A stretch of DNA of 64,000 nt from Candidatus Spongiisociaceae bacterium (GTDB taxonomy: Bacteria > Actinomycetota > Acidimicrobiia > Spongiisociales > Spongiisociaceae): assembly GCA_965219685.1 (NCBI GenBank), contig CBDCOH010000002.1:3808001-3872000 (forward strand). Reading direction: 5' to 3'. This document shows, piece after piece, positions 26,643-44,068 of this stretch (within the stretch, counting starts at the first letter, position 1; every line of letters begins with the position of its first letter). The translations under genes were made by a program, and so were the position numbers. The notes under the pieces were generated by a model. It worked only from the letters and a program-made list of their open reading frames with translations, had not been told where the DNA came from and made no database searches.

Positions 26643-27299
26643 CTAGTTAGCGCTTTGTAGTCTCTCAGCCTTTCCGAGGCCCAAGTAGCTCACGAGGCCG
26701 GCGCAACTCGCGGCGATGTCGGTGTGGTCGAAGAAGAAGCCGGGCATGCCGACGGCTTCGGCGCCTTCGATGTTGACCGCCATGTCGTCCACGAACAGGC
26801 ACTCGGCGACGTCGAGACCCATGCGTTCGGCGGTGGACACATACGTGAGGGGGTGCGGTTTGCGGACCCCGAGGGTTACCACGTCGATGACATGTTCGAA
26901 CAGGTGGGCGTAGGGCCACGAGTCCCACCATCCGTATCCCAGCCACTCGCTCGAATCGTTGGAGAGGGTGGCCTGGCGGAACCGGCGGCCAAGCGTCTCG
27001 ATGGTGGCCATCACCTCCGGCCGCTCGGTGCCCTCCCAGTCGATCTCTCGCTTGAGATCGAGCGGGTAGCCACGTGCGGCGCTGTCCCGCTGGTATCTCT
27101 TCCAGTACTGGCCCTCAGTTAGCTCCCCAGTAGAGCACTTCGCGTAGTCGGTGTCCCCTTCGGCCGAGAAGGGTCCCCTTGGCAGCGTTCCCGGCGGCCA
27201 TCCCCTAGACGCTTCCAACCGGTCGAGCAGCTCGAAGGGGGTGGGGTAGAGGATCCCGCCCATGTCCCAGATGACGGCCCGGAGGTCAGCGGTCCCCAC
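26643..27299 (-). CDS. HAD-superfamily phosphatase
   Basis: WDMGGIL, LSND, RKPHP and FVDD motifs; last gene of the meta-cleavage operon. Confidence 0.88.
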   Translation of the reverse strand: MGTADLRAVIWDMGGILYPTPFELLDRLEASRGWPPGTLPRGPFSAEGDTDYAKCSTGELTEGQYWKRYQRDSAARGYPLDLKREIDWEGTERPEVMATIETLGRRFRQATLSNDSSEWLGYGWWDSWPYAHLFEHVIDVVTLGVRKPHPLTYVSTAERMGLDVAECLFVDDMAVNIEGAEAVGMPGFFFDHTDIAASCAGLVSYLGLGKAERLQSAN

Positions 27300-27669
27300 G
27301 TTCCCACTCCCGGGCGTGGTCCAGCAGCATCTCGCGCATGGAGCGGGCCGGCCCCGCCTCGGGGAGTTCGACCAGCACCGTGCCGGACTCGAGCCGTACC
27401 GGGTAGGAGCGGAGTTGGAGTTCGGGTTCGCCGCACTTGGCGCCGGTGGCGGCGTCGTAGCGCCAGAAGTGGAGCGGACAGGTGATGACCCCGTCCTTGA
27501 CCAGCCCGCCGGTCAGCGGGGACGCCTGATGGAGGCACTCGTTCCGGTATGCGTACGCACGGTCGCCGATCCGCACGACGACCGCCCGACCTCCGGCGAC
27601 GGCCACGCAACTGTTCGATGGAAGGTCCTGCAGTGCGCCGGCGCTAACCGTCGGCATCGTCAGACCCAA
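27286..27669 (-). CDS. Rieske [2Fe-2S] ferredoxin
   Basis: CLH...CPLH Rieske ligands; about 120 aa. Confidence 0.9.
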   Translation of the reverse strand: MGLTMPTVSAGALQDLPSNSCVAVAGGRAVVVRIGDRAYAYRNECLHQASPLTGGLVKDGVITCPLHFWRYDAATGAKCGEPELQLRSYPVRLESGTVLVELPEAGPARSMREMLLDHAREWERGDR

Positions 27670-27673
27670 CGCC

Positions 27674-29125
27674 CTAATCGTCCAGCTTCATGACCACGGC
27701 CTTGGACTCGGTGAAGAACTCGTAGCTGTAGTCGCCGCCCTCCCGGCCGACTCCCGAGTCCCCGTAGCCGCCGAAGGGCGCCCTCAGGTCCCGGACGAAG
27801 AAGCAGTTCACCCACATGGTGCCTGCCCTCACCTCTCGGGCCACCTTGTGGGCGGTGTTCACGTTGGTGGTCCAGACCATTCCCGCCAAGCCGTAGCGGG
27901 TGGCGTTGGCCACTTCGATGGCCTCGTCGATATCGTCGAAGGGGATCACCATCTCCACCGGCCCGAAGATCTCGTCCTGGCAGGAGCGCATGTGGTTGTC
28001 GGCGTCGGCGAAGACGGTGGGGGCCACGTAGTTGCCCCTGGCGAGTTCCCCGTCCGTGATCCGGTAACCGCCTGTCATCAGCTTGGCGCCCTCCTCGACG
28101 GCCAAGTCGATGTACGACAGGACCTTCTCCATGTGTTCGGCCGACACGAGCGGTCCCATCCCGGTGCGGGGATCGAGCGGGTTGCCCACCACGTAGCGGT
28201 CGGCTCCATCCACCATTCGGGCCACGAACTCGTCGTATATGGGGCGCTCCACTAGGAGTCGTGCCCCGGCCAGGCACACCTCGCCCTGGTTCGTGAAGAT
28301 GCCCTTCAGCGATCCGGCCACGGCCTTGTCGAGGTCGGCGTCGGCGCACACGATGTTGGGCGAGTTGCCGCCCAACTCGAAGGACAGCTTCTTCAGGGTG
28401 GGAGCGGCGGTGGCCATGATGGCCTTGCCGGTGGCGGACTCGCCGGTGAAGGTGATGGCGTCGACGTCGGCATGGGCCACCAGCGCTTCGCCGGCCTCCC
28501 CCGGTCCGAAGCCATGGACCACGTTGAACACTCCATCGGGCACCCCGGCGTCGCGGCAGATCTCAGCCAACAGGGTGGCGGTGACGGGCGACTGCTCGGC
28601 GGGCTTGGCCACCACCGTGCAACCGTAGGCGAGCGCCGGAGCCACCTTCCAGCTCAGGAGCATCAGCGGGAAGTTCCAGGGTGAGATGGCGCCCACCACC
28701 CCCAGCGGTTCCCGCAGCTCGTAGGTGAGCACCCCGTCCCACGGCTTGGAGAAGGCCTTCGTCGCGGCGTGCTCGGCCGCCTCCGCGAAGAACCGGAAGT
28801 TGTGGGCCGATCTCGGCATGTCCTTGGTGCGGGCCGCACCGATCGGCTTGCCCATGTCGCGGACCTCCCAGCGGGCCAGCTCGTCGAGACGGGCCTCGAT
28901 GCCCTCGGCGACCCGGAACAGGATCCTGCGCCGCTCAGCGGGGTCCATCGCTCCCCAGGCCGGGAAGGCCTCGCGGGCAGCCCGGACGGCCCGTCCCACG
29001 TCGATGTCGTCCCCCCTGGCCACGGTGGCGATCGGTTTGTTGTCGATCGGGCTGATCGATTCGAAGGTCTCGCCGGAGGACGGGTCGGTGAACTCGCCCC
29101 CGATGAAGTGCCGTAACGTGATCAT
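27674..29125 (-). CDS. dmpC: 2-hydroxymuconic semialdehyde dehydrogenase
   Basis: ISPWNFPL, VHGFGP, FTGES, ELGG, NQGEVC, EIFGP, and WVNCFFVRDLRAPFGG. Confidence 0.88.
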   Translation of the reverse strand: MITLRHFIGGEFTDPSSGETFESISPIDNKPIATVARGDDIDVGRAVRAAREAFPAWGAMDPAERRRILFRVAEGIEARLDELARWEVRDMGKPIGAARTKDMPRSAHNFRFFAEAAEHAATKAFSKPWDGVLTYELREPLGVVGAISPWNFPLMLLSWKVAPALAYGCTVVAKPAEQSPVTATLLAEICRDAGVPDGVFNVVHGFGPGEAGEALVAHADVDAITFTGESATGKAIMATAAPTLKKLSFELGGNSPNIVCADADLDKAVAGSLKGIFTNQGEVCLAGARLLVERPIYDEFVARMVDGADRYVVGNPLDPRTGMGPLVSAEHMEKVLSYIDLAVEEGAKLMTGGYRITDGELARGNYVAPTVFADADNHMRSCQDEIFGPVEMVIPFDDIDEAIEVANATRYGLAGMVWTTNVNTAHKVAREVRAGTMWVNCFFVRDLRAPFGGYGDSGVGREGGDYSYEFFTESKAVVMKLDD

Positions 29126-29367
29126 CCTGGTTCCTCCTGGGCTTCGGTCGCTTCTCGGGTCGCGGCGGCGCGTCGTTCGGCCATCACCACCGAAGAGGGA
29201 CGCCCGCCGATCCCGAACGTGTGAGCCGGCATCTCGTTGACCATGACCCGCACTGTCTCGATGGGGGCGTCGAGGCTGATCGCAGCTGCCTCTGACACGC
29301 TGGTGATCATCTTCTCGATCGTCTCCTGCGGGCGGCCCTCCAACAGGTTGACGGTGATTATCGGCAT
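29122..29367 (-). CDS. dmpI: 4-oxalocrotonate tautomerase
   Basis: Catalytic N-terminal Pro (MPIITVNLLEGR), VRV and FGIGG. Confidence 0.92.
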   Translation of the reverse strand: MPIITVNLLEGRPQETIEKMITSVSEAAAISLDAPIETVRVMVNEMPAHTFGIGGRPSSVVMAERRAAATREATEAQEEPG

Positions 29368-29410: not shown

Positions 29411-30217
29411 CTAGTCGCTTACTTTCATGGACGCGCTACCCAAACGGTCGATCTCGATGACAACGTGGGTGCCGGGGTCGAGTTCGATGGGACCCGTAAG
29501 TCCACCGGAGATCACCAGTTGGCCTGCCGCGAGGCCCCGGCCGGACAGAGCCAGGCGGCGGACGAGCCAGGCAACGCTGGCAGCCGGATGCCCGTACGCC
29601 GCGGCTCCCGAAGACGTGTAGAGAAGTTGACCGTTCAAAGTCACGACCACCCCGACCCTCGACAGGTCGAAGACCGGTCTCGTTGCCCGGGTTCCCAGCA
29701 CCACCTTTCCCGCCGATGAGTTGTCGGCGGTGTTGTCCAGCGCCCGGAACCGGAAGTCCATGAACCGGGAGTCGACCACTTCGATGATCGGCACCACGTA
29801 TGCGGTGGCGGAGAGCACCTGCTCGGCGGAGACGCCGGGGCCGGAAACGTCCTCGCCCAGGACGAAGGCGATCTCAGGCTCCGCCTTCGGGTGGATCAAC
29901 TCCCCCAGGGACACTCTCCCGTCGGAGACGATCATCGGGTCGGTCAGCCACCCGAAGTTGGGAGAGTCCACTCCCAGCGCCTTCTGCATTGCGGCGGAGG
30001 TGAAACCGAGCTTGGCGCCCACCACCCGCTCGCCCCGGTCCACTCTCAGTTGCATGCCCCTTTCCGCGATGGCATAGGCCGCCCCTTCGGTGAAGTCGGG
30101 GTATTCGTCGGTCAGCCTGGTGGTGGGGATCCGGGAGAGGCGAGCCTGGTCGAGCCGGTCTGCAAGGTTCCCGATCGTGTCCGGATCGAGACGCTGCAGA
30201 CCGGTGGAGTCGTTCAT
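29411..30217 (-). CDS. 2-keto-4-pentenoate hydratase / 4-oxalocrotonate decarboxylase family protein (third paralog)
   Basis: KLGFTS, PKAEPEIAF, EVVDSRF and ADNSS; ATG 30217 overlaps the upstream stop. Confidence 0.85.
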   Translation of the reverse strand: MNDSTGLQRLDPDTIGNLADRLDQARLSRIPTTRLTDEYPDFTEGAAYAIAERGMQLRVDRGERVVGAKLGFTSAAMQKALGVDSPNFGWLTDPMIVSDGRVSLGELIHPKAEPEIAFVLGEDVSGPGVSAEQVLSATAYVVPIIEVVDSRFMDFRFRALDNTADNSSAGKVVLGTRATRPVFDLSRVGVVVTLNGQLLYTSSGAAAYGHPAASVAWLVRRLALSGRGLAAGQLVISGGLTGPIELDPGTHVVIEIDRLGSASMKVSD

Positions 30218-31002
30218 GCCACGGACAGTCCCACCGAGCCGATCCGGTCGAAGGAGGCGACGACAGTGTCCCCAGGGGCAACCGGTACCGCACCGGTCAA
30301 CGCCCCGGCCAGGACCAACGAACCGGCAGGGAGACCCTGGTCTCTCTCGGCCAGCTTCCGCACGAACCAGGCCACCGCCGCGGCCGGATGGCCCAGGACG
30401 GCCGCGCCCGCGGCGGTGGCGGCGATCTCGCCGTTCTTCTCGAACACGCAACCCACCAGCGCCAAGTCGAAGTCGCCTAGGGCTACCGGATTCCCCACTG
30501 TGAACGCCCCGGCACTGCAGTTGTCGGCCACTACGTCGGCCAGGGTGAAGGAGTATCCGGCGAAACGGGAGTCGAGGATGTCGAGCGCCGGCGCAACGGC
30601 GGCGGTGGCGGCGAGAACCTCGTGCAGACCGACCGGTCCCTCGAGGTCCTTCGAGGTTATGAACGCGATTTCCGGCTCGGCGCGGGGCTGGATGAGCAGG
30701 CCACTTTCCAGGGGCTGTCCGGGATTCAGGCGGTGGCGGTCCGTGAACCATCCATACAGAGCCTCGGAGACCCCCATCTGTTGCTGTTTTGCCCGGCTGG
30801 TCAACCCCAGCTTGGCGGCGACGATGGTTTCACCATCTACCTCGGCACGGGCCAGAAGGGTGTCCTGGATGTCGTAGGCGTCGTCGACGGTGAACCGGTG
30901 CTCGGTCGTCAGGGAGTCGATGGCGGTCCGCGTTTCGACGGCGTTCGCCAATCTGGCCGCGAAACGCTCTGCCAGATCGCTAGCGGGTGCTGGGCGTATC
31001 AC
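30214..31002 (-). CDS. dmpH: 4-oxalocrotonate decarboxylase
   Basis: KLGLTSRAKQQQMGV, typical of DmpH/XylI; PRAEPEIAF and VVADNCS. Confidence 0.8.
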   Translation of the reverse strand: MIRPAPASDLAERFAARLANAVETRTAIDSLTTEHRFTVDDAYDIQDTLLARAEVDGETIVAAKLGLTSRAKQQQMGVSEALYGWFTDRHRLNPGQPLESGLLIQPRAEPEIAFITSKDLEGPVGLHEVLAATAAVAPALDILDSRFAGYSFTLADVVADNCSAGAFTVGNPVALGDFDLALVGCVFEKNGEIAATAAGAAVLGHPAAAVAWFVRKLAERDQGLPAGSLVLAGALTGAVPVAPGDTVVASFDRIGSVGLSVA

Positions 31003-31014: not shown

Positions 31015-32043
31015 TCACGCTACGGCGGGTTGGGCCGCCGCCGCCCGGCGCTGGAGTTCCATCGCCACGTCGATGATCATGTCCTCCTGGCCTCCCACCA
31101 CTCTCCGCTCGCCCAGTTCCAGCAGGATGTCCCTGGTCGGGACGCCGTATCTCTCGGCGGCGCGCTTGGCGTGCAGCAGGAACGACCCGTAGACGCCCGC
31201 GTAGCCCAGTAGCAGCCCGTCGCCGTCGATGACTCCCTGCTCGGGACGGATGGGGCGGACCGCCCGGTCGGCCACCTCGATCAGTGAGATCGGGTCGATG
31301 CCGGTCACCCAGCCGGTCTTCTCGCACGCTGCGACCAGCACCTCGGTGGGGCAGTTGCCGGCCCCGGCGCCCAGGCCGGTCATGCACCCGTCGATCTGGT
31401 CCACCCCTTCCTCAAGGGCGGCAAGGGAGTTGGCCACCGCCAGGGATAGGTTGTTGTGGGCATGGATACCCACCTCGCATGACAGGCCGGCCTTGAGGGT
31501 CGCCACCCGGCGCCGGGCGTCGTCGATGGTCATGGCCCCGGCCGAGTCGACCGTGTAGACCACGTCGGCGCCGTAGGACTCCATGAGCAGGGCCTGCTCC
31601 AGCAGCGCGTCCGGTTCGATCATGTGGGACATCATCAGGAAGCCCACCGCTTCCATCCCGAGTTCCTTGGACAGCGCGATGTGCTGCTCGGCTATGTCGG
31701 CTTCGGTGCAGTGGGTGGCGATGCGGGCCACCCGGACGCCCATCCCGGCGGCCCGGCGGAGGTCGTCCTTCACCCCGATCCCCGGGAGCATCAGCACGGC
31801 GATCTTGGAGTTGGTAGCCGTCTCGACCGCCACCCTGATGAGGTTCATCTCGTCGGTGTGCGAGAAGCCGTAGTTGAAAGACGATCCCCCCAGCCCGTCG
31901 CCGTGGGTGACCTCGATCACGGGGACCCCGGCCTGGTCCAGCCCGGCCACGACCCGCCGGACCTGGCTCTCGGTGAGTTGGTGGGCCACGGCGTGCGAAC
32001 CGTCCCGCAGTGTGGAGTCGGTGAGGCGGAATGCGGCCGTCAT
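31015..32043 (-). CDS. dmpG: 4-hydroxy-2-oxovalerate aldolase
   Basis: [37 protein letters not shown] and GGQEDMI. Confidence 0.96.
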
Positions 32044-32936
32044 CGGACGGCTGCCATTGCCTCGGCCACCCGGACGGCGGAGGCGGTCATGATGTCGAGG
32101 TTGCCGGCGTACGGGGGCAGGTAGTCGGCGGCCCCCTCCACTTCCAGAAGCACCACCACCCGGGCTTTCACATCGCCGCCGGGAGTACGGAACAGGTCCT
32201 CGTCGAACACGGGCTCCGCCTTGATCCGGTAACCGGGTACGTAGGTGGCCACTGTGCGGACCATCTCGTTGATCGAATCGGCGACCTCGTCCCGGTCGTA
32301 GCCGTCGCCCAGGGCGCAGAAGACGGTGTTGCGCATCAGGATGGGAGGATCGGCAGGATTGAGGATCATGATCGCCTTGCCGTGGTCGGCCCCTCCCACC
32401 TCCACCAGCGAGGCCGAGGTGGTCTTGGTGAACTCGTCGATGTTCTGGCGGGTTCCCGGACCTGCCGACACCGACGACACCGTCGACACGATCTCCGCGT
32501 ACGGGACCGGGGCCACGGCCCCGACAGCCGCCACTATGGGGACGGTGGCCTGCCCGCCGCAGGTGATGAGGTTGAGGTTGGGTGCGTCGAGGTGGGCGTC
32601 GAGGTTGACCGGGGGGACCACCAGGGGTCCGAGTTTGGCCGGGGTCAGGTCGATCGCCGTGATCCCCGCCTGCCGGTATCGAGGGGCGTTCATCCGGTGG
32701 ACCCAGGCAGAGGTGGCCTCGAACACCAGGTCGAAGCTGTCGGCGTTCCCGATCACCCAGTCCGCGCCCTCCGCGGTCGCCTCGACTCCTTCCGCCCTTG
32801 CCCTGGCCAGTCCTTCCGACTCCGGGTCGATACCCGCCATGGCTCCGACTTCCAGGACATCGGAGCGGAGGAGCTTGTGGAGCAGGTCGGTGCCGATGTT
32901 CCCGCTGCCGACGATGGCGCAACGCATCTGGCTCAA
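32040..32936 (-). CDS. dmpF: Acetaldehyde dehydrogenase (acylating)
   Basis: [29 protein letters not shown] and YAGNLDIMT. Confidence 0.96.
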
Positions 32937-32937
32937 G

Positions 32938-33705
32938 TCATGCCATCCTCAGGGAGACCGGTCCGAGGCGGTCGAAATCGGCTCGCACCACGTCTCCGGC
33001 GTCCACGTCCACCGCGGCGTGCAACGCCCCGGTCATGACGAACATTCCGGGTTCCAGGATGACCCCGTGGGGGGCGAGCGTGTTGGCTAGCCACGCCAGG
33101 GCTGTGATGGGGTTCCCGAGCGCGGCCGCCCCGGCGCCGGTGGCAACGATCGCGCCGTTCAGCGAGAAGGTCATGCCCACCAGCCGCAGGTCGAAGTCGA
33201 CCGGCACGATACGGCTGCTCAGGACCACCCCGCCGATCGAGGCGAGGTCGCTGATGGTGTCGGCCAGCTTGATCCGCCAGTCGGCGATCCGCGAGTCGAC
33301 CACCTCGATGGCGGCCACCGCGCCTCCCACCGCCCGGGCGGCCTCGATGCCGGTGACGTTGGGCCCGGCAAGAGGCCGGTCCAGGACCAGCGCTATCTCG
33401 GCCTCGGCCCTCGGCCGGATCAAGGAGGCGGTGTCGAGATCCCCTTCGTGGACCATCGAGTGCAGCACCGGGCCGTAGTCGGGGTCGGAGATGCCCATCA
33501 TCTGCTGCATCGCCTTGGAGGTCAGGCCGAGCTTGTAGCCCGAGATCGAGTCCCCGTCGGTGAGGAGCATCGAGGCGAAGCAGGTCTGCACGGCGTACGC
33601 ATCATCGGCTGTCATACCGGGGTCGGTGTCCGTGAAAGGCTCGATGGGACTGCGGTCCCTGCGGGCCGCGTAGAGCGCCTCGGCCCGCTGCTGGGCGGTG
33701 GTCAT
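32938..33705 (-). CDS. dmpE: 2-oxopent-4-enoate hydratase
   Basis: [21 protein letters not shown] and [14 protein letters not shown], typical of MhpD/DmpE. Confidence 0.85.
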
Positions 33706-33772
33706 TGGTTGCTGTCCTTGCCTGGCCTGACCCTTTTACCGTACCCAAGCGGCCGCGGATCTTGTGAACACC

Positions 33773-33789
33773 GTTCTTCTATGCGGTAC
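33773..33789. promoter_or_regulatory. IclR-type operator, copy A (GTTCTTCTATGCGGTAC)
   Basis: Matches 36187-36203 and 36371-36387; lies upstream of the meta-cleavage operon. Confidence 0.6.
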
Positions 33790-34739: not shown

Positions 34740-35501
34740 CTACCGGCGATATCCCAGCTGATAAGACGCCACTGCAGCGGCTTCACGTACGGACTGGGAA
34801 AGGCCGAGCAGTTCGGATCCGAAGCGGGACTTCGGGCCTGCCATCGAGACAGCCGCGACGACTGCCCGGCTGCGGTCGCGGATCGGGGCCGACACCGAGA
34901 TGACTCCCAACTCCGACTCCTCGAGGTTGCAGGCGTAGCCGCGGCGGCGTATCCCCGCGAGTTGCCCGCGGAACGTCATGGTGTCGGTGATTGTATGGAC
35001 GGTCTTCGCCTCCATCCTCCATCCATCCAGTATCCGGTCGAGCGTGGCGTCGTCGAGGTGGGCCAGCAGGCACTTGCCGGTGCTGGTCGAGTTCGCCGGT
35101 TGGCGCCGCCCTACCTTGATGAACAGGCGCAGCATGTGAGGCGAGTCGAGACGCTCGATGTAGATCACCTCGCGGAGGTCGAGAACGCCGGCGTGCACGG
35201 TCCCTCCCGTCACGTCCTGTAGCCAGTTCATCGGGGGAGTCAGGGCGGCGTGCAGGTTGAGGCCGGTGACCGCCGTGTTGCCCAGGTCGTACATGGCCAG
35301 GCCGAGCCGGTAGCGACCAGTGTCGGGGTTCTTCACCAGCAGGTGCTCCTCGGTAAGGGTGGTGAGCAGGCGGTGCACCGTGGACTTGCCGAGATCCAGG
35401 CGCCGGGACAGTTCGGAGACACCCAGTTCGGGGCGTTCGGAGGAAAACTCCTTGAGCGCCCTGGCGGCGTTGCGGACCGAGGACAGGGTGCGGCCGCTCA
35501 A
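34740..35501 (-). CDS. IclR family transcriptional regulator
   Basis: HTH LGVSELSRRLDLGKSTVHRLLTTL, STSTGKCLLA, RRRGYA..EE and SVSAPI; TTG start overlaps the upstream stop. Confidence 0.92.
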   Translation of the reverse strand: MSGRTLSSVRNAARALKEFSSERPELGVSELSRRLDLGKSTVHRLLTTLTEEHLLVKNPDTGRYRLGLAMYDLGNTAVTGLNLHAALTPPMNWLQDVTGGTVHAGVLDLREVIYIERLDSPHMLRLFIKVGRRQPANSTSTGKCLLAHLDDATLDRILDGWRMEAKTVHTITDTMTFRGQLAGIRRRGYACNLEESELGVISVSAPIRDRSRAVVAAVSMAGPKSRFGSELLGLSQSVREAAAVASYQLGYRR

Positions 35502-36175
35502 CCGGGTCCTCTCAGCGCCGTCAGCACTGCCCTCCGCACCTTCTTGCGGTCGCCTGACGCCGCCGACTCCTTCACCGGTTCGCTCCACGGAACCAGAGCA
35601 CGGGCCAGCAGTCCGTGGGCGCGGGTCAATCCGGCCGCGTCGGCGGCAGCGAGTTCGTCGACCAGTCCCGGGTCGCCGGATGCATGGGAGCGGATGGACT
35701 CGTAGTCGCGGGCGGCGGCTAGATGGGCGTTGGCGAGACCTGTCCCCGCATGCGTCGCGTGATGAGCCGTGAGGTCCGAACCGGGCCGCATCACCAAGTG
35801 GTACTGGTACCCCCCGATCCCTACCACCCTTCTCACCGAACCGGGATCGGGCCGATCTCCGCTCTCGGCGGTGCCGAGTGCCGGCAGTACCACCGGGTCT
35901 AGGAACCGGAGAGTCCAGACCATGCCGTCCTGCTCGAAGTCGGCGCTGACTTCCGGACCCCGTGGCGCGGCGAGGCGTTCACCGGTGGCGATCACATGGA
36001 GGTTGCGCGCTCCAGCCGCCACCACCGTGAACGGGCTGGTCAGAAGCTCAAGGCTCCCCTGAATGGCGGGAGGGTAGGTGAAGGCGACCCGTGTGTAGGC
36101 GGAGTGGACGTTGGCCACGTAGTCGGCCATGGCGGCCCGGATGTCTTCCGGACGGGGTCTGGACATGTCGTCCAT
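35498..36175 (-). CDS. Hypothetical protein, coupled to the IclR gene
   Basis: Clean ORF overlapping the IclR start; His-rich motif HHATHAGTGLANAH. Confidence 0.7.
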   Translation of the reverse strand: MDDMSRPRPEDIRAAMADYVANVHSAYTRVAFTYPPAIQGSLELLTSPFTVVAAGARNLHVIATGERLAAPRGPEVSADFEQDGMVWTLRFLDPVVLPALGTAESGDRPDPGSVRRVVGIGGYQYHLVMRPGSDLTAHHATHAGTGLANAHLAAARDYESIRSHASGDPGLVDELAAADAAGLTRAHGLLARALVPWSEPVKESAASGDRKKVRRAVLTALRGPG

Positions 36176-36186: not shown

Positions 36187-36203
36187 GTTCCTCTATGCGG
36201 AAC
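36187..36203. promoter_or_regulatory. IclR-type operator, copy B (GTTCCTCTATGCGGAAC)
   Basis: Imperfect palindrome about 12 bp upstream of the ATG at 36175. Confidence 0.65.
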
Positions 36204-36207
36204 GGGA

Positions 36208-36370: not shown

Positions 36371-36387
36371 GTTCCGCTATACGGAAC
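36371..36387. promoter_or_regulatory. IclR-type operator, copy C (GTTCCGCTATACGGAAC)
   Basis: Near-perfect palindrome upstream of the catechol 2,3-dioxygenase operon. Confidence 0.7.
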
Positions 36388-36449: not shown

Positions 36450-37358
36450 ATGGGCATTCTCCGGTTGAGCCATGTGGACATCACGGTTCCCGACCTCGAC
36501 CTCGCGTCGGCGTACTACACGGGCGTGATGGGGATGATCGAGGTGGAGCGGACCTCGGACCGCGCTTTCTTCAAGTGCTGGGACGAGGAGGACCATCACT
36601 CGCTCGCGGTCCGCTACGACCCCCGGGTGGGTATCGACCGCTTCTCGTTCAAGGTCGAGGACGACGAGGATCTGGCAGAACTGGAGGACCGCGTGGAGTC
36701 CTTCGGCTTCCGGGTCGAACGAATCTCGAAGGGGGAGGAGGTCGGCCAGGGCGAGTCGATCCGCTTCGCCACCCCGTCCGGTCACACGATGGAGTTGGTG
36801 CGGGAGGTGGAGCGGGTGGGTGGTTTGCTGCCCAAGCTCAACCCGTCCCCGGTGCCTCCCGACCTACCGGGCATTGCACCGCCCCGGATGGATCACCTGC
36901 TGGTCACCGCCGAGGAGGTGGGTGAGGCCACCAAGTTCTACAGAGAGATACTCGGCTTCCGGATCACCGAGCAGCTCCTCGACGGGGAGGGTCGCCAGAT
37001 AGGAACCTGGCTGGAGCGAAGCCACTCCCCGCATGACCTGGCGGTGGTGTCGGGGCCCAACGGCGGGCTCCACCATTTCGCCTTCTGGCTGGACGACTGG
37101 GATCACGTGCGCCGCTCGGCCGACATCCTCGCCTACCACGCCATCCAGATCGACGTGGGGCCCACCCGGCACGGGATCACCCGGGGCAGCACCATCTACT
37201 TCTTCGATCCGATGGGGACCCGCAACGAGGTATTCACGGGCGGCTACCGGCCCGACCCGGACTTCCCCACCATCACCTGGACCGAGGACAACATCGGAAA
37301 GGCCATCTTCTACTACGAAGGCGAACTCAACGAACGCTTCATGAAAGTCCACACCTGA
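36450..37358 (+). CDS. xylE: Catechol 2,3-dioxygenase, paralog 1
   Basis: MGILRLSHV, KCWDEEDHHS, Fe ligands in RMDHLL, LHHFAF and RNEVF, plus GPTRHGITRG. Confidence 0.93.
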   Translation: MGILRLSHVDITVPDLDLASAYYTGVMGMIEVERTSDRAFFKCWDEEDHHSLAVRYDPRVGIDRFSFKVEDDEDLAELEDRVESFGFRVERISKGEEVGQGESIRFATPSGHTMELVREVERVGGLLPKLNPSPVPPDLPGIAPPRMDHLLVTAEEVGEATKFYREILGFRITEQLLDGEGRQIGTWLERSHSPHDLAVVSGPNGGLHHFAFWLDDWDHVRRSADILAYHAIQIDVGPTRHGITRGSTIYFFDPMGTRNEVFTGGYRPDPDFPTITWTEDNIGKAIFYYEGELNERFMKVHT

Positions 37359-37401
37359 TGTCCGCCGTCTGCCCGGCGGCCGTTCCGTGGGAGGGCTGCT
37401 A

Positions 37402-38313
37402 ATGGGCATCCTGCGGCTTTCCCATGTGGTGGTCCGGGTCCCCGACATAGAGCTCGCAACGGCTTACTACTCCGAGGTAATGGGCCTGATCGAGACCGCT
37501 CGAGAGTCCGAGCGGGTGTATATGAAGTGCTGGGACGAGCACCAGCACCACAGTGTGATCCTGGAATACGCGCCGACCTACGGCCTGGAGCGATTCGGCT
37601 TCAAGGTCGAGCACGAGTCCGACCTGGCCGAACTGGCGGCCAGGGTGGAAGAAACGGGGATCCCCACCAAGCGGTTCGAGCCCGGCGAGCTCGGTGTCGG
37701 GTCTGGCGCCACCGTGCAGTTCGTGGCGCCTTCCGGACACACCACCGAACTTGTCTGGGGCATGGCGCAGGTCGGGAACCTCCTCCCCCTGACCAACCCG
37801 CCGCCCGAACCGCAAGGTTTGGTAGGGATCCATCCTCCCCGTATCGATCACATCTTCCTCATGTGCGAGGACGTGGACGAGACCACCGCCTTCTACACCG
37901 ACGTGCTCGACTTCCGCCTCACCGAGCAGATCCTGGCGGACGACGGCCACCAGCTGGTGACCTTCCTCGAGCGCACCCACACCCCTCACGACATCGCCTT
38001 CATCACCGGTCCTAACGGGGCCTTCCATCACGTGGCCTTCTGGCTCGACGACTGGAACGAAGTCCGCAAAGCGGCCGACATCTGCGCCTACCACGGCATT
38101 CCCATCGACGCAGGCCCCACCCGCCACGGCGCCACCCGCGGGCACGGCCTGTACTTCTTCGACCCGGCCGGCAACCGCAACGAGGTCTACACCGGTGGCT
38201 ACTGGGCCGACCCGGACCGCGAGCCGGTGACCTGGACCGAGGCCGAGATCGGGCGGGCCGTTTTCTACTACGAAGGGGTGGTCGACCAGCGCTTCATGAC
38301 GGTGCACTCGTGA
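37402..38313 (+). CDS. xylE: Catechol 2,3-dioxygenase, paralog 2
   Basis: Same motifs: RIDHIF, FHHVAF, GPTRHGATRG and GNRNEVY. Confidence 0.93.
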   Translation: MGILRLSHVVVRVPDIELATAYYSEVMGLIETARESERVYMKCWDEHQHHSVILEYAPTYGLERFGFKVEHESDLAELAARVEETGIPTKRFEPGELGVGSGATVQFVAPSGHTTELVWGMAQVGNLLPLTNPPPEPQGLVGIHPPRIDHIFLMCEDVDETTAFYTDVLDFRLTEQILADDGHQLVTFLERTHTPHDIAFITGPNGAFHHVAFWLDDWNEVRKAADICAYHGIPIDAGPTRHGATRGHGLYFFDPAGNRNEVYTGGYWADPDREPVTWTEAEIGRAVFYYEGVVDQRFMTVHS

Positions 38314-39410
38314 GCGACCGGCGTCCCGACCTGCCCCGCACCGAACGCGACGAGGCGCCCATGTATCTGGCTCGCTATCTCGAGCGGGCCTCCCGGACCC
38401 CCGATCCCGACGAGGATCCCGACGACACCACCCCCCTCTACCTGCGCCGCTTCCGGAACCGTCGCTCGACCGAGACCATCACCGCGCCGCTTCCACCCCT
38501 CTGGGAGCGGTCGGACCACGGCATGCAGATGGTGCTCAGTGAGGACAACCGCAACAAGGAGATCGGCGCCCCGCCCGAGGCCACCCGCCCCGTTGTCAAC
38601 GACGTCTACCTGGTGCGGCACGCCGAGACCCAGGGTTACTCGACGGAGGCCGGTATCACCCCGCTGGGCGTCTGGCAGGCGCGCTCGGTAGGCCACACGC
38701 TCGCCCGTCGGGTCGGCGCCGGGGAGAAGATCGTGCTGGCCCATGCGGCTACCAACCGGGCCGGCCAGACGATAGAACAGATCCATCGATCGGTCCTCGA
38801 CGGGCTGGAGCTGTTCGAGAAGGACGTCAAGGTCATCGACCCGAGGGCGTACGACGAGTTCCGCAACTTCATGGTGGCGACCCCGGACGGCATCATGGAT
38901 GTGACCTCCGCGTTCCGCCTCTACTACTCGGTGCTCGAGCGCTTCGAGCGGATCGCCCTGGGCGACCGTCCCGCCTGGCTGGTGGAGATCGACCGGTTCT
39001 GGCGCACGCAGCAGGGCGGGGGGGATCCGATCCAGCACTGGCTCACCATTCCGATGCTGCACTTCGAGCCGCCCGCTCTGTGCGTTCGGCGCTTTTGGAC
39101 GGGGATCAGAACCCTGGCCGCCGCCGACCCCGGGGCCCGCATCGTCATAGCCACGCACTCGGGACCCATCCGCGCCTTCGCCATCTGGGCCTTCGGGTAC
39201 GACCCGGGCGAGCCCTACAACACCGAGCACGTACGGGTGAAACTGATGGAGGGGGGTCGCGAGGCCCTCGTCGTCTACCGCAACCGGGTCCAGGAGGTCC
39301 TGGTCCCCGAGATCGGTGATCTGCCCACCTGGTCCCTCGACGAGCAATGGACACCTCCGCCCCCGGCACCGGACGACCGGCGACCGGCAACCGACCACCG
39401 CCATGTGTGA
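38310..39410 (+). CDS. Histidine phosphatase superfamily protein with an N-terminal extension
   Basis: VYLVRHAET (RHG variant) and IVIATHSGPIRA. Confidence 0.8.
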   Translation: MSDRRPDLPRTERDEAPMYLARYLERASRTPDPDEDPDDTTPLYLRRFRNRRSTETITAPLPPLWERSDHGMQMVLSEDNRNKEIGAPPEATRPVVNDVYLVRHAETQGYSTEAGITPLGVWQARSVGHTLARRVGAGEKIVLAHAATNRAGQTIEQIHRSVLDGLELFEKDVKVIDPRAYDEFRNFMVATPDGIMDVTSAFRLYYSVLERFERIALGDRPAWLVEIDRFWRTQQGGGDPIQHWLTIPMLHFEPPALCVRRFWTGIRTLAAADPGARIVIATHSGPIRAFAIWAFGYDPGEPYNTEHVRVKLMEGGREALVVYRNRVQEVLVPEIGDLPTWSLDEQWTPPPPAPDDRRPATDHRHV

Positions 39411-39480
39411 TGCGTGTCCCACTGTTGCCCCCGATGCCAACCTTCCCCACCCGGACTCCATGCCCGAGGAGGTGCCTTTC

Positions 39481-40587
39481 ATGAGCAATCGGTTCATCGT
39501 CTGGTTCAACGACTACCGGCCCGATGACAGGCCCAGGATCGGAGGAAAGAACGCCGGCCTGGGTGAGATGATCAACGCCGACCTGCCGGTCCCTCCGGGG
39601 TTCGCAGTCACCACCGACGGGTTCGAGACCATCAGGAACCATCCGCGGGCTGTGGATGAGGTCCGGGCTCTCCTAGCGACGGTCGACTTCGCGGATCCGC
39701 CCGGAATCCGGGCACTGTCCGGGAGGATCCGGTCGGTGATCGAGGCCCTGCCCATGGCGGCCGAGGTGGAGCAATCGATCCGTGCGGCCTACACGCAACT
39801 GAGCGGTCGCTGCAACCAGGACGACGTACCCGTGGCAGTCCGGTCCAGCGCCACCGCCGAGGATCTGCCGGACGCCAGCTTTGCCGGGCAGCAGGACACC
39901 TTCCTGTGGATAAGGGGCGCCGAAAGCCTCATCGAGCACGTCAAGCGGTGCTGGTCCTCTCTCTTCACCGACCGGGCCATGTCGTACCGCCACGAGATGG
40001 GACACGACCACGAGGTGGTGTCGATGTCGGTGGCGGTGCAACAGATGGTGGATCCCAAGTCGGCGGGAGTGGCCTTCACGCTCGATCCGGCCACGGGTGA
40101 CCGATCCCAGGTCGCCATCGAGTCGTCCTGGGGGTTGGGCGAAGCGGTCGTGTCGGGGGAGGTCACACCCGACAACTTCCTGGTTGACAAGGTGATCCTC
40201 GAGATCCACTCGCGCACTATCTCACCCAAGCACACCGAATTGGTGATGCGTGCGGACGGTAACGGCGTGGAGTGGCGTGACGTGGCTACGTCGCGCCAGC
40301 AGAGCCCGTCGGTCAGCGACGCCGAACTGCTCGAGATCACCCGGATGGCCAAGACCGCCGAGCGTTACTTCGGCGCTCCCCAGGACATCGAGTGGGCCGT
40401 GGACCGCCACCTGCCGGAGGGCGGCAACGTCGTGATGCTCCAGAGCAGGCCCGAGACGGTGTGGAGCCGCAAGGCTCCCCGCCAGGTGTCCGAGCCCACT
40501 TCCGGGTTCATGGACAGCATCGTGTCGACCCTGCTCTCCCCGGTACACACGCGGGGTTCCGTGTCCGCCGACGACGGGGAGGCATGA
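39481..40587 (+). CDS. PEP-synthase-like ATP-binding subunit (phenylphosphate synthase beta / CreI-like)
   Basis: GGKNAGLGEM, PVPPGF, VAVRSSATAEDLPDASFAGQQDT, WGLGEAVVSGEVTPD, QDIEW and QSRPET; no pyruvate-binding barrel. Confidence 0.88.
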   Translation: MSNRFIVWFNDYRPDDRPRIGGKNAGLGEMINADLPVPPGFAVTTDGFETIRNHPRAVDEVRALLATVDFADPPGIRALSGRIRSVIEALPMAAEVEQSIRAAYTQLSGRCNQDDVPVAVRSSATAEDLPDASFAGQQDTFLWIRGAESLIEHVKRCWSSLFTDRAMSYRHEMGHDHEVVSMSVAVQQMVDPKSAGVAFTLDPATGDRSQVAIESSWGLGEAVVSGEVTPDNFLVDKVILEIHSRTISPKHTELVMRADGNGVEWRDVATSRQQSPSVSDAELLEITRMAKTAERYFGAPQDIEWAVDRHLPEGGNVVMLQSRPETVWSRKAPRQVSEPTSGFMDSIVSTLLSPVHTRGSVSADDGEA

Positions 40588-40668
40588 CAGGACCGGAACA
40601 GGGCGGAGTCGGAGACAGTCAGCATCCAGAAACAGGCAAGCAGCCAGATCGAAAAAGGAGACCCACAA

Positions 40669-42453
40669 ATGGCCACACGCTTCCCCAGCCCGTTCGAGGC
40701 GGAGACCCCACCCGGCGCCGAAGGATGGGAGGATCTCTACACGTATTCCCTCCCGTTCTCCGAGGATCGACGGGACTACGAGGAGGCCACCTTCTGGTTC
40801 CAGGACAGCATCCATTGGGCGGAGCCTCTCACGCCTTGGGACGCCACCTGGTACGAGTACGCGATCGCGGCGCTGTCCCAGTACAACACGCGTCACTATC
40901 TGATCCCGCCTGCGCTGGGGATCGACTACCGGGTGCTGAACGGCTACGCATACCTGACCCCGGTTCCCGTTCTCGACGGCGCCGAGATCGAAGCCCGCGT
41001 TCCGCAGTTCATGGAACGGGCCGGCTTCTACTTCATGAACTGGGGCGATCTCTACGACAAGTGGCTCGTCAAGATGAAGGACCTCATCGCGGAGATGGAA
41101 GCCATCAGCTTCTCGCCCCTGCCCGAGAAGGAGGACCTGGAGGTAATCACCGAAGGTCATGGAACCGGTTCCGGTCTCACGATCCAGGAGGAGTACCGGG
41201 GGCTCCTGAACCTCGGCCTGAAGCTCTGGCACTACCACTTCGAGTTCCTCAACCTGGGCTACGCCGCGTACCTCGACTACTTCGGATTCTGCAAGCAGGC
41301 ATTCCCCAACATCCCCGACCTGGCCATCGCGCGGATGGTGGCCGGAGTCGAGGTGGACCTGTTCCGGCCCGACGAGGAGTTGAAGATACTGGCCGCAATC
41401 GTGGTGGACAACGGCTTGGAGGACCAGCTGGCTGAGGGCTTGGACGCGCTCGAGGGCACACCCTTCATGGACCACTGGAACTCCGTGAAGCACCCCTGGT
41501 TCAATTACTCCGCGGGCAACGGCTTCTACCACAGCGACAAGGTCTGGATCGAGCATCCGGAGATCCCGCTTGGCTTCGTGGCCGGGTACGTGGACCGCAT
41601 CAAGGTCGGCGAGGACATCGCCCGGCCGATCGAGAGGATCCGGGCCGAGCGCGACCGGATCGTGGAGGAGTACACGGCCCTGCTGTCCTCGGACGAGGAC
41701 CGCGAGGCCTTCCAGGGCAAGCTGGGCCTGGCCAGGGTGGTCTTCCCCTACGTGGAGAACCACAACTTCTACGTGGAGCACTGGAGCCACTCGGTGATGT
41801 TCCGCAAGATGAAGGAGCTGGGCGACGTGTTCGTGAAGGAGGGGTTCCTGGCCTCCCGCGAGGACGTCTTCTACCTGAAGCGCGACGAGGTGAACGAGGC
41901 TCTCTGGGACATGTACTCTGCCTGGGCGGTGGGCACCGGCCCCCGCGGTCCGGTCTACTGGCCGAGAGAGGTGGCGCGGCGCAAAGGAGTCGTCGATGCC
42001 CTCCGGCAGTGGTCGCCGCCGCCGGCTCTGGGCGAACCGCCCGAGGTGGTCACCGAGCCGTTCACGATCATGCTCTGGGGTATCACGTCCGAGAGCATCG
42101 GGATGTGGCTGGGTGCAGGCGACGACGCCGACGGCGGCCTGCGCGGTTTCGCGGCCTCTCCGGGAGTGGCGGAAGGCCCGGCCCGGGTCATCATGTCGGC
42201 CGACGACATCGGCCAGCTGGAGGAAGGGGAGATCCTGGTGGCGCCTATCACCGCGCCGAGTTGGGCCCCCGCCTTCGGCACTATCGGCGCCGCGGTGACC
42301 GACATCGGAGGGATGATGTCCCACGCGGCCATCGTGTGCCGGGAGTACGGTCTGCCGGCCGTCACCGGGACCGCCTTCGGCACCAGGGACATCGAGACCG
42401 GAACCATGCTGCGGGTGGACGGAAGCTCCGGCACGGTGACCGTTATCGCCTGA
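40669..42453 (+). CDS. PEP-utilising phospho-His subunit (phenylphosphate synthase alpha / CreH-like)
   Basis: Large N-terminal substrate domain plus a C-terminal swivel domain GGMMSHAAIVCREYGLPAVTGT. Confidence 0.88.
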   Translation: MATRFPSPFEAETPPGAEGWEDLYTYSLPFSEDRRDYEEATFWFQDSIHWAEPLTPWDATWYEYAIAALSQYNTRHYLIPPALGIDYRVLNGYAYLTPVPVLDGAEIEARVPQFMERAGFYFMNWGDLYDKWLVKMKDLIAEMEAISFSPLPEKEDLEVITEGHGTGSGLTIQEEYRGLLNLGLKLWHYHFEFLNLGYAAYLDYFGFCKQAFPNIPDLAIARMVAGVEVDLFRPDEELKILAAIVVDNGLEDQLAEGLDALEGTPFMDHWNSVKHPWFNYSAGNGFYHSDKVWIEHPEIPLGFVAGYVDRIKVGEDIARPIERIRAERDRIVEEYTALLSSDEDREAFQGKLGLARVVFPYVENHNFYVEHWSHSVMFRKMKELGDVFVKEGFLASREDVFYLKRDEVNEALWDMYSAWAVGTGPRGPVYWPREVARRKGVVDALRQWSPPPALGEPPEVVTEPFTIMLWGITSESIGMWLGAGDDADGGLRGFAASPGVAEGPARVIMSADDIGQLEEGEILVAPITAPSWAPAFGTIGAAVTDIGGMMSHAAIVCREYGLPAVTGTAFGTRDIETGTMLRVDGSSGTVTVIA

Positions 42454-42516
42454 TCGATCGGGTCGAGGCAGCAGGGACGAGGCGTACGCGGACGAGGACA
42501 CAGAAGGAGGCAGCAA

Positions 42517-43827
42517 ATGCTTTCCAAGGAGCAGAACGAGCGGCTGACCCGGGTAGGTCCGGGTACGCCGATGGGCGAGCTACTGCGCCGCTACTGGTAC
42601 CCGGTCGCTTTCGTCCGGGAACTGGACGAGTGGCCCATCCGCAAGGTACGGCTGCTCGGTGAGGACTTCGCCCTCTGGAAGACCCCGCAGGGCGGGTACG
42701 GCATCGTCCAGGAGGCGTGCCCGCACCGGGCGGCTTCGCTGATCTACGGCGTGGTGGAGGAGGACGGTCTCCGGTGCGGATACCACGGGTGGAAGTTCGA
42801 CTGCTCCGGCAACTGCATCGAGCAGCCGGCCGAGCCCGGGAAGACCGCCTTCATGCGCCATGTCAAGGCCTTCGCGGGCAAGGCAGAGGCCCTCGGCGGC
42901 ATGGTATGGGCCTACATCGGTCCCGACCCGGCCCCCGAATTGCCCCGCTTCGACGTGTTCGTGGATCCCGGCTTCATAGACGTGGGCCACTCCATGCTGC
43001 CGTGCAACTGGCTCCAGATAATGGAGAACTCGGTCGATCCCCACCATGTCGAATGGTTGCACGGCCGCTACTTCGAGTTCCTCGGGGCGCAGCAAGGCTT
43101 CGTGGCGCCCAAATCCTTCCAGAAGAAGCACCTGAAGGTCGGGTTCGACGCCATGGAGTGGGGCATCCTCAAGCGACGGGTCCTGGAGGGCCACACCGAG
43201 GAGGACGACGACTGGGCGGTGGGCCACCCGCTGGTGTTCCCCCATTCGATGCGAGTAGGCGGTGCAGGTATCGACCAGATGCAGATCAGGGTCCCGATCG
43301 ACGACACGACCACCTGGGCGATGTTCTACTCGAACCACCATCCCGAAGGCCTCGACACCTACCCGGAGCAGATCTACCCCGTCGACTACGAGTACCAGTG
43401 GATAGACGACAAGGGCCGCCACATCGTCGACTACATCGAGGGCCAGGATGTGATGGCGTGGGTGAGCCAGGGCAGGATCGCCGACCGGACCTCCGAACAC
43501 ATCGGTAAGTCGGATATCGGGGTCATCATGATCAGGCGCATGTTCAAGGCCCAGATCGCCCGGGTGGAAGCGGGCAAGGATCCGACCGTCGCCTTCACCC
43601 GGGTCCCCCAGGAGCGGATCGAGCTTCCGTGCGAGAAGAAGAAGTTCGGCGCCGGCATCGATTTCGCCCTCGCCTGGTTGGACATGGGCTCGACCCGGTA
43701 CTCGCCGGCCCTCGACACCTTGCGCAAGATCCACCTCGAAGCGGCCAGGGCGAGGGGTGAGGTTCCGAGCTCGGACGAGTACGCGGTGAGGCAGCCATTC
43801 GACGCGGGCACGCCTCGGACCATGTGA
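42517..43827 (+). CDS. Rieske non-heme iron aromatic oxygenase alpha subunit (phthalate 4,5-dioxygenase/LigX-like subfamily)
   Basis: LTRVGPGTPMGELLRRYW, CPH...CGYHGW, and mononuclear Fe ligands ENSVDPHHVEWLH. Confidence 0.9.
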   Translation: MLSKEQNERLTRVGPGTPMGELLRRYWYPVAFVRELDEWPIRKVRLLGEDFALWKTPQGGYGIVQEACPHRAASLIYGVVEEDGLRCGYHGWKFDCSGNCIEQPAEPGKTAFMRHVKAFAGKAEALGGMVWAYIGPDPAPELPRFDVFVDPGFIDVGHSMLPCNWLQIMENSVDPHHVEWLHGRYFEFLGAQQGFVAPKSFQKKHLKVGFDAMEWGILKRRVLEGHTEEDDDWAVGHPLVFPHSMRVGGAGIDQMQIRVPIDDTTTWAMFYSNHHPEGLDTYPEQIYPVDYEYQWIDDKGRHIVDYIEGQDVMAWVSQGRIADRTSEHIGKSDIGVIMIRRMFKAQIARVEAGKDPTVAFTRVPQERIELPCEKKKFGAGIDFALAWLDMGSTRYSPALDTLRKIHLEAARARGEVPSSDEYAVRQPFDAGTPRTM

Positions 43828-43831
43828 CCCG

Positions 43832-44068
43832 ATGACCGAGCCGCGTGTCTCCGGGACTCACTGGTGGGACCCAGACCGGGTCGCCCACCTGGCGGACATG
43901 CCCCGGTTCTGCCCCAACTGCGGGGGCGCCGTGACGGGCGCGGAAGGAATCTCGGTCGAGTACTGGGAGTCCGACCGGAGGGTCTACCACACCTGGTGCA
44001 ACGCCTGCGGCTGGGCCGGCAACATAGTGCGAATCCAACGCATGGTGGGCCACGAGCCCGAAGACTGA
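43832..44068 (+). CDS. Small Zn-ribbon-like protein
   Basis: CPNC...CNAC; starts 4 nt after the oxygenase stop. Confidence 0.7.
   Translation: MTEPRVSGTHWWDPDRVAHLADMPRFCPNCGGAVTGAEGISVEYWESDRRVYHTWCNACGWAGNIVRIQRMVGHEPED

Follow-up and report, generated by a model that had tools for sequence, protein, structure and literature searches.

The 64,000-nucleotide stretch analysed here (hereafter the window; contig CBDCOH010000002.1 of the assembly GCA_965219685.1, positions 3,808,001 to 3,872,000) belongs to a Candidatus Spongiisociaceae bacterium with a genome of about 4.4 Mb, and its G+C content is about 66%. The closest public relatives of the source genome are metagenome-assembled genomes of Acidimicrobiia. 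At its centre the window carries two divergent operons which, judged by their sequence, look like an undescribed aerobic route from phenols to catechols. Pfam and NCBIfam scans of the 29 open reading frames (ORFs) located between 16 and 62 kb bore out the gene content that a first-pass annotation, made from the letters of the window, had assigned to both of them. The plus-strand operon (36450-44068) opens with genes for two catechol 2,3-dioxygenases, followed by those for a histidine phosphatase, both subunits of a split dikinase, a Rieske oxygenase and a zinc-ribbon protein; the minus-strand operon accounts for a HAD phosphatase, a Rieske ferredoxin and the enzymes of the 4-oxalocrotonate branch (Table 1).

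Table 1. Genes and sequence elements of the dikinase-Rieske cluster (positions in the window)
Feature	Position	Strand	Basis of assignment
HAD-family phosphatase	23120..23764	+	Pfam Hydrolase/HAD_2
HAD-IA phosphatase, last gene of the minus-strand operon	26643..27299	-	Pfam, NCBIfam
Rieske-type [2Fe-2S] ferredoxin	27286..27669	-	Pfam Rieske/Rieske_2; NCBIfam HcaC/AndAb-like
2-hydroxymuconic-semialdehyde dehydrogenase-like protein	27674..29125	-	Pfam Aldedh; TIGR03216 (598 bits) and TIGR02299 (614 bits), both under cut-off
4-oxalocrotonate tautomerase (4-OT)	29122..29367	-	Pfam Tautomerase
DmpH-like 2-oxo-3-hexenedioate (4-oxalocrotonate) decarboxylase family protein	29411..30217	-	top match TIGR03218, under cut-off; ATG start at 30217
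Second DmpH-like decarboxylase/hydratase family protein	30214..31002	-	Pfam, NCBIfam
DmpG-type 4-hydroxy-2-oxovalerate aldolase	31015..32043	-	Pfam HMGL-like and DmpG_comm; ATG start at 32043
DmpF-type acylating acetaldehyde dehydrogenase	32040..32936	-	Pfam AcetDehyd-dimer
DmpE-like 2-oxopent-4-enoate hydratase	32938..33705	-	top match TIGR03220
IclR-family regulator	34740..35588	-	family assigned from reading of the translation
Cluster-specific His-rich protein	35498..36175	-	225 residues; divergent from the dioxygenase genes
17-bp palindrome GTTCCnCTATnCGGAAC, copy 1	36187..36203	.	candidate IclR operator
17-bp palindrome GTTCCnCTATnCGGAAC, copy 2	36371..36387	.	candidate IclR operator
Catechol 2,3-dioxygenase 1	36450..37358	+	TIGR03211, 373 bits (cut-off 320)
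Catechol 2,3-dioxygenase 2	37387..38313	+	TIGR03211, 364 bits (cut-off 320)
Histidine phosphatase, branch 1	38310..39410	+	Pfam His_Phos_1
ATP-grasp dikinase subunit	39481..40587	+	Pfam PPDK_N, E 9e-111
Dikinase subunit with substrate-binding part and swivel His	40669..42453	+	PEP-utilizers; PRK08296.1-2, 795 bits (cut-off 650)
Alpha-only Rieske oxygenase, phthalate-dioxygenase family	42517..43827	+	Pfam Rieske with LigXa_C/VanA_C
Four-Cys zinc-ribbon (or rubredoxin-like) protein, 78 residues	43832..44068	+	CPxC...CxxC

Both catechol 2,3-dioxygenases are intact and full-length, share 57% identity with each other and align over their full length to their top PDB matches, 3HPV and 1MPY; they are the only TIGR03211 matches in the whole genome. 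Together with the hydroxymuconic-semialdehyde dehydrogenase-like protein, 4-OT, decarboxylase, hydratase, DmpF and DmpG they resemble the set found in the Dmp and Xyl systems. A hydroxymuconic-semialdehyde hydrolase is absent from the cluster, and thus the probable substrates are phenol and those phenols that give catechol or 4-substituted catechols. Since the operon opens with the two catechol dioxygenase genes, the dephosphorylated product of the preceding steps should be a catechol.

The dikinase has the split architecture of the two-component phenol dikinases, with PPDK_N alone on one protein and a separate swivel protein. The ATP-grasp subunit finds PDB matches in the ATP-grasp domains of phosphoenolpyruvate (PEP) synthase and rifampin phosphotransferase, and the swivel protein, of 594 residues, carries PEP-utilizers at its C-terminus, preceded by about 490 residues without a PDB sequence match. 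Of 14 control genomes, that of Corynebacterium glutamicum alone exceeded the cut-off of PRK08296.1-2, the model which the swivel protein matches, and the swivel gene is single-copy in the source genome. The Ser-His swivel motif TDIGGMMSHAAIVCREYG (GGMMSHAAIV) is present, so that the catalytic His is preceded by Ser, as is also described for PpsA and CreH in PMC12167813. That paper also gives a mutual identity of about 45% for HpeH, CreH and PpsA, a sub-micromolar Km for HpeHI, interpreted by its authors as scavenging, and names characterised two-component relatives that all act on phenols (PMC12167813).

Paralogs of the swivel protein in other genomes occupy settings of their own. One that is 45% identical (L091, G011) occurs with a biotin carboxyl carrier, a biotin carboxylase, a carboxyltransferase and a HAD protein, near protocatechuate genes, and is Hpe-like in its gene context; another, 53% identical (L094), precedes two HD-domain proteins, which we take to be the Cre pattern, and is on this ground of context Cre-like. 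As far as its sequence indicates, the window pair is a new lineage of the phenol-dikinase subfamily. Every dikinase lineage is thus accompanied by a phosphatase of its own and by a single transforming enzyme, a part for which the Rieske oxygenase is the sole candidate in this cluster.

The conservation of the cluster was studied by querying with the Rieske protein, one genome being taken per species, which gave 589 relatives in 595 candidate stretches. The best 80 of these 589 loci (63-99% identity), among them loci of Acidimicrobiia, Nanopelagicales and two cultured strains, formed the conservation set, and the window proteins were placed on them by tblastn, the denominators being the loci with a flank long enough. 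The swivel subunit gene lies directly upstream of the Rieske gene in 62/64 loci and the zinc-ribbon gene directly downstream of it in all 75; the ATP-grasp subunit is kept in 57/61, the histidine phosphatase in 56 of the 58, and the catechol 2,3-dioxygenases in 54/55 and 54/54. Of 62 loci, 40-41 also have a HAD gene downstream of their Rieske gene (within 2.6 kb in 40/62). The His-rich protein and the IclR regulator were within the set distance in 45/53 and 44/52 loci, respectively, and most of the misses have these genes farther upstream. At least two cultured strains carry the cluster, Micromonospora sp. NPDC005806 (L058) and Nocardioides zhouii HLT2-9 (L060). Six further loci (L036, L043, L047, L064, L077 and L086) are deposited as non-actinobacterial taxa or Bifidobacterium breve, with a cluster 64-76% identical to the others; gene transfer could explain these odd names, as could mislabelling or mis-binning.

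In a survey of 401 genomes sampled evenly from the phylum, the Rieske clade (threshold E<=1e-60) was present in 18, with the swivel dikinase gene adjacent in 16. Every dikinase ortholog of at least 62% identity in this sample abuts the Rieske gene, and none of the paralogs of 41-55% identity adjoins the Rieske clade except in the case of genome G006. The majority gene order is phosphatase, ATP-grasp, swivel, Rieske and zinc-ribbon. In a second order (L055) the phosphatase is followed by a swivel paralog (50% identity), an ATP-grasp protein (42%) and the Rieske gene; L021 has the same swivel paralog in the same place, with no ATP-grasp match there. In the third order, that of G006, the phosphatase is followed directly by the Rieske gene, inside which the contig ends, and another contig of that genome starts with a zinc-ribbon homolog, a swivel paralog (49%) and an ATP-grasp protein (45%). 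G006 is one of the two Rieske-positive genomes in which the adjacency was missed. The other is G281, whose Rieske protein (50% identity, the nearest out-group) belongs to a different cluster: its neighbours are a GFO/IDH/MocA oxidoreductase, a hydrolase and a LigB dioxygenase, and there is no kinase.

The conservation of the cluster is far beyond chance. The synteny search proposed in the first-pass annotation thus found the gene combination widely conserved, by a wide margin, in the 80 loci as well as in the 401 genomes. That these genes keep recurring together, in more than one order and with dikinases of separate lineages, speaks for a functional connection even though the carriers are related. 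Two further dikinase-like genes were rejected as parts of the cluster: the one in L016 encodes a genuine PEP synthase, accompanied by the regulatory kinase of that enzyme, and the second swivel-type dikinase in L038 belongs to a separate cluster with HAD and LigB-dioxygenase genes. The latter set (L038:13312-18913), present in some related genomes a few kb from the Rieske cluster, comprises a second swivel-type dikinase, a HAD protein and two LigB-type dioxygenase genes, and may represent another phosphorylation-initiated aromatic route.

The closest solved relatives of the Rieske oxygenase are 7FJL (E 6e-51), the phthalate 4,5-dioxygenase PDO-KF1 of Comamonas testosteroni KF1, and 7FHR (E 8e-50), which we take to be RO-CH34, a related oxygenase of unknown function. 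Like these alpha-only enzymes, which bind anionic aromatics, the window protein has a complete set of metal ligands: the Rieske ligands C68, H70, C87 and H90, the 2-His-1-Asp iron ligands H177, H182 and D311, and the bridging D174 are aligned to PDO-KF1 and invariant in 48 orthologs. The enzyme thus comes from a family that binds anionic aromatics, the substrate of its nearest solved relatives being the dianion phthalate. In PDO-KF1 the phthalate carboxylates are held by Arg207 and Arg244, and Arg231 and Ser179 line the same face, as described in PMC8649396. Arg207 and Arg244 are not kept in the window enzyme, the C-terminal half of which is divergent, and the loss of these carboxylate-binding arginines indicates that it is not a phthalate dioxygenase. 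Arg231 matches the invariant R220/R221 in a HMMER alignment that is uncertain over residues 190-240; H176, H205, K219, R246 and R258 are further invariant basic residues of the catalytic domain.

The oxygenase also differs from PDO-KF1 in its partners, because PDO-KF1 has a fused reductase, whereas the window has a Rieske ferredoxin, a constant zinc-ribbon companion and no dihydrodiol dehydrogenase partner. The ferredoxin is the probable electron donor of the oxygenase; its homolog adjoins the IclR gene in 7/80 loci, the 10-kb flank being too short in most. In 11 loci the HAD gene is followed by an ORF for a Pyr_redox_2 flavoprotein (L074:12236-13591, 451 residues), which may be a candidate ferredoxin reductase or mere lineage synteny. 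The zinc-ribbon gene claimed in the first-pass annotation was confirmed, its span of 43832-44068 being in frame with the end coordinate given there. The CPxC...CxxC motif is invariant in 32 aligned homologs, and the pattern CPxC(G)...WCxxCxW resembles rubredoxin knuckles. From this sequence, the protein could bind iron instead of zinc. Predictions of a complex between the Rieske oxygenase and the zinc-ribbon protein scored 0.48, 0.01 and 0.01.

The histidine phosphatase, a genuine protein of about 350 residues, carries an N-terminal extension of about 95 residues and a large insertion, with homology over residues 5-350. The catalytic Arg-His pair, R103 and H104 (RHAET), and the second His, H283, are invariant in 33 sequences. 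The predicted core (mean predicted local distance difference test, pLDDT, 75) gave RosC, PhoE and phosphoserine phosphatase as top Foldseek matches, and in this model the enzyme resembles small-molecule phosphatases. Two HAD phosphatases, 34% identical to each other, are available in addition. The one at 23120-23764 is 43-51% identical to the HAD proteins encoded downstream of the zinc-ribbon gene elsewhere, has matches in 52/80 loci, and is nearer to the cluster HAD of other genomes than is the one at 26643-27299.

The His-rich protein, encoded next to the divergent promoters, appears to be specific to this cluster: in the phylum sample it occurs in 15 of the 401 genomes, all Rieske-positive, and in none of the other 383. 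It has an invariant HHAxH...H motif, with H60, H138, H139 and H142 invariant in 29 sequences, and matches no Pfam or NCBIfam family and no PDB sequence. Its AlphaFold2 model is confident (pLDDT 92.8); Foldseek found no match to it in the PDB at E<=0.001, and a protein-atlas structure match of 0.76 was to a cluster without a name. There are 269 homologs at E<=0.001, of which the best 120 are without a Pfam family and hypothetical or nameless. That this protein performs a step between kinase and phosphatase is an outside possibility.

The two copies of the 17-bp palindrome are the only matches in the window; both are intergenic, and none would be expected by chance (100 shuffles). The exact palindrome is not conserved (one match in 96 loci), and a looser palindrome, TTCC-N7-GGAA, is found in the matching intergenic region of 8/47 loci. 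A 7-bp tandem array of about nine units (GGTGAGT, then GGTGAAT; 36207-36268) lies between the two palindromes in the divergent promoter region. Between the hydratase and IclR genes there is a minus-strand ORF with a NYN domain (33736-34545) and an odd low-complexity C-terminus; it has a homolog in 0/80 loci, where the hydratase and IclR genes are adjacent.

Among the 29 scanned ORFs, no Pfam diiron or flavin phenol hydroxylase, P450, carboxylase or dihydrodiol dehydrogenase was found. The view that the island has no cis-dihydrodiol dehydrogenase was upheld, as the only short-chain dehydrogenases/reductases (20687-21502 and 56686-57402) are outside the operons; the former has a relative in just one of the 80 loci, not adjoining the cluster there. 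The absence of a phenol hydroxylase, also claimed in the first-pass annotation, holds for the island and fails for the genome, which encodes a four-component diiron monooxygenase 155 kb away (G000:C2:4002018-4006733; L096:4018-8733). This cluster encodes the hydroxylase (alpha and beta subunits) and small proteins, and for electron transfer a Rieske ferredoxin of its own and a ferredoxin reductase resembling HcaD/AndAa (candidate gene at G000:C2:4002018-4003262); the monooxygenase could make phenols or catechols and lend its reductase to the window cluster.

The presence of a kinase and a phosphatase in one operon implies that some step takes place on the phosphoester between them. In the scheme proposed, the dikinase (39481-42453) would use ATP and its swivel His to phosphorylate the phenolic hydroxyl, as expected from its membership in the family of PpsAB, CreHI and HpeHI. 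The Rieske oxygenase would then bind the anionic aryl phosphate and oxygenate the ring ortho to the phosphoester, a role assigned to it by elimination and by the traits of its family, drawing its electrons from the Rieske ferredoxin (27286-27669) and, beyond that, from a reductase whose gene lies elsewhere, and with the zinc-ribbon protein as its obligate companion. The histidine phosphatase, perhaps with the help of a HAD phosphatase, would strip the phosphate, leaving catechol or one of its 4-substituted derivatives. Ring cleavage by the two catechol 2,3-dioxygenases and passage through the dehydrogenase/4-oxalocrotonate branch, well supported at the family level, would carry this product to pyruvate and acetyl-CoA, and the IclR regulator presumably governs the divergent promoters. 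The cell would probably benefit in two ways: scarce phenols would be trapped with high affinity, and they would acquire an anionic handle suited to an oxygenase family whose members recognise anions.

Ring hydroxylation with retention of the phosphate, followed by release of catechol by the histidine phosphatase, is thus a tentative reading of the sequence data, to which we would give a probability of roughly 0.4. The first-pass proposal that phosphorylation, Rieske oxygenation and dephosphorylation feed meta-cleavage stands as regards synteny, the dikinase subfamily and the metal ligands, while its chemistry rests on sequence. Several points weigh against it. The carriers are kin, and so the locus counts exceed what independent events would give; the designations Hpe-like and Cre-like come from gene context and not from alignment to the characterised PpsA, CreH and HpeH; and no ferredoxin reductase was found among the scanned ORFs. 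The nearest sequence relatives of the oxygenase are dioxygenases that make cis-dihydrodiols, not monooxygenases, and in the HMMER alignment, uncertain over this region, Arg207 and Arg244 of PDO-KF1 are replaced by Ala197 and Val235. The genome has no catechol 2,3-dioxygenases other than these two, and the distant diiron monooxygenase could supply them as well.

If the Rieske enzyme instead performed a 1,2-dioxygenation of the aryl phosphate, the geminal hydroxy-phosphate would collapse to phosphate and catechol, and the phosphatases would only clear stray phosphoesters. Such expulsion of a leaving group after ipso attack is familiar from 4-sulfobenzoate 3,4-dioxygenase and from phenoxybenzoate, aniline and nitroarene dioxygenases, and it would suit a cluster from which a dihydrodiol dehydrogenase is absent and whose 50% identical out-group has a GFO/IDH/MocA oxidoreductase. 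It was ranked below phosphate retention because the histidine phosphatase is kept in 56/58 loci and in all three gene orders, much as the Hpe-like clusters have a dedicated phosphatase of the HAD type and the Cre-like ones of the HD type; HAD, too, is kept in 40-41/62 loci, and a phosphatase hitting the kinase product would create a futile cycle unless it were needed after the oxygenase. Direct expulsion is therefore regarded as the less likely of the two mechanisms put forward in the first-pass annotation. An attack on a substituent, for example the O-demethylation of guaiacyl phosphate with subsequent dephosphorylation to catechol, would follow a Cre-like logic, in which the CreHI step precedes side-chain oxidation (PMC12167813). 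The Pfam C-terminal domains of LigXa and VanA are consistent with it, as is the finding of dicamba O-demethylase and NdmA, a caffeine N-demethylase, among the PDB matches (E 4e-20 to 3e-13); however, the ring-dihydroxylating phthalate dioxygenases are far closer (E 6e-51 vs 4e-20), and with no formaldehyde-handling gene among the scanned ORFs this course of events appears quite unlikely.

The kinase substrate might also be something other than a simple phenol: a hydroxy-aromatic acid, a heteroaromatic bearing a hydroxyl group, or an arylamine, from which a phosphoamidate would arise, with the oxygenase thereafter making a catechol of it. PpsAB-like synthases can activate aniline, as described for Desulfatiglans anilini in PMC7500099, and amino acids and small anions are the usual cargo of the family of the symporter at 23936-25630 beside the minus-strand operon. 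Yet neither the symporter nor its two small neighbours have homologs in the 80 loci, and the characterised two-component relatives named in PMC12167813 are all phenol-active, which makes a non-phenolic substrate improbable. Just as improbable is a division of labour in which the oxygenase acts on an unphosphorylated anionic aromatic, the kinase and phosphatase serve regulation, detoxification or another branch, and co-regulation alone made them neighbours. The link between kinase and oxygenase is known from gene context, catabolic islands often combine upper pathways, and the distant diiron monooxygenase provides for other routes to phenols or catechols; against this, the adjacency in 62/64 loci and the placement of different dikinase paralogs beside the phosphatase, Rieske and zinc-ribbon genes in other orders would be hard to account for, and a kinase and a phosphatase without an intervening step would waste ATP. 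On the broader question, the balance tips slightly in favour of aryl phosphates being the true substrates of a new phthalate-family Rieske clade, in what would be the fourth phosphorylation-initiated phenol pathway and the first in which a ring-hydroxylated phosphoester is fed to extradiol cleavage.

As far as is known, aerobic bacteria convert phenols to catechols by flavin or diiron hydroxylases. To our knowledge, ATP-dependent phosphorylation of phenols has been known only before carboxylation (Pps, Hpe) or before P450 oxidation of a side chain (Cre). In the Cre pathway, CreJEF is responsible for the P450 oxidation and CreD is the final phosphatase. This pathway (CreHI-CreJEF-CreD), which acts on 4-cresol in Corynebacterium glutamicum, resembles the proposed one in running under aerobic conditions and in its sequence of phenol phosphorylation by a two-component dikinase, attack of an oxygenase on the resulting phosphoester and final removal of the phosphate by a dedicated phosphatase (PMC12167813). 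It differs in that the target of the P450 is the methyl group and protocatechuate is where its product leads, whereas the window offers a Rieske oxygenase, a histidine phosphatase and meta-cleavage of catechol; no Cre-type P450 (CreJ) is encoded among the 29 scanned ORFs.

PpsC and the Ppc proteins complete the gene content of the anaerobic phenol pathway of Thauera aromatica. There, a split PEP-synthase-like enzyme with the same Ser-His motif makes phenyl phosphate (PpsABC/PpcABCD; PMC12167813), but para-carboxylation comes next, with no oxygenase and no ring-cleavage dioxygenase. The Hpe system of Rhodococcus rhodochrous GD02 (HpeHI-HpeCBA-HpeD), which degrades hydroxyphenylethanones, and AcvAB of Sphingobium likewise have a two-component dikinase with a swivel His, according to PMC12167813. 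The Hpe route differs in continuing with a biotin-dependent carboxylation of the side chain and a HAD phosphatase, whereas the window scan revealed no carboxylase set. The Dmp system, similar in its lower part, obtains catechol through an ATP-free multicomponent diiron phenol hydroxylase, in place of which the island has the kinase, the Rieske oxygenase and the phosphatase, without a hydrolase branch. A full-text search with most subscription journals outside its reach brought up the papers on HpeHI and MarK, but none in which a dikinase for phenol or phenyl phosphate is coupled to meta-cleavage or to a Rieske oxygenase, in agreement with the earlier statement that the combination was not known to have been described.

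Several genes flanking the operons were considered as parts of the pathway and rejected. The E1 dehydrogenase alpha and beta genes (44820-46834) have homologs in 0/80 loci, and the same holds for the sodium:solute symporter (23936-25630) with two small ORFs (25826-26614), considered as a transporter of the pathway. A phosphotriesterase-family gene (21542-22651, plus strand) lies just upstream of the HAD gene at 23120-23764, a suggestive position beside an aryl-phosphate pathway; the idea that it releases aryl phosphates by acting on organophosphate triesters was dismissed, its homolog occurring in just one of the 80 loci. Downstream of the island, a plus-strand ORF (47439-51581) encodes an SbcC/Rad50-like ATPase of 1380 residues, unrelated to the pathway.

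If the proposed route is correct, aryl phosphate esters would constitute a new class of substrates for Rieske oxygenases, and phosphorylation would have an evolutionary rationale, namely that a neutral phenol is disguised as an anionic substrate of phthalate-type enzymes. The pathway would then represent high-affinity scavenging of phenols, paid for with ATP, in abundant uncultured Acidimicrobiia and Nanopelagicales, and flavin and diiron phenol hydroxylases would be replaced by it in many uncultured Actinomycetota of marine, freshwater and soil habitats. It would also supply enzymes for the regioselective ortho-hydroxylation of phenols. The cluster highlights two conserved families without an assigned function, the His-rich protein and the zinc-ribbon companion, and its occurrence in the cultured strains L058 and L060 makes the scheme directly testable.

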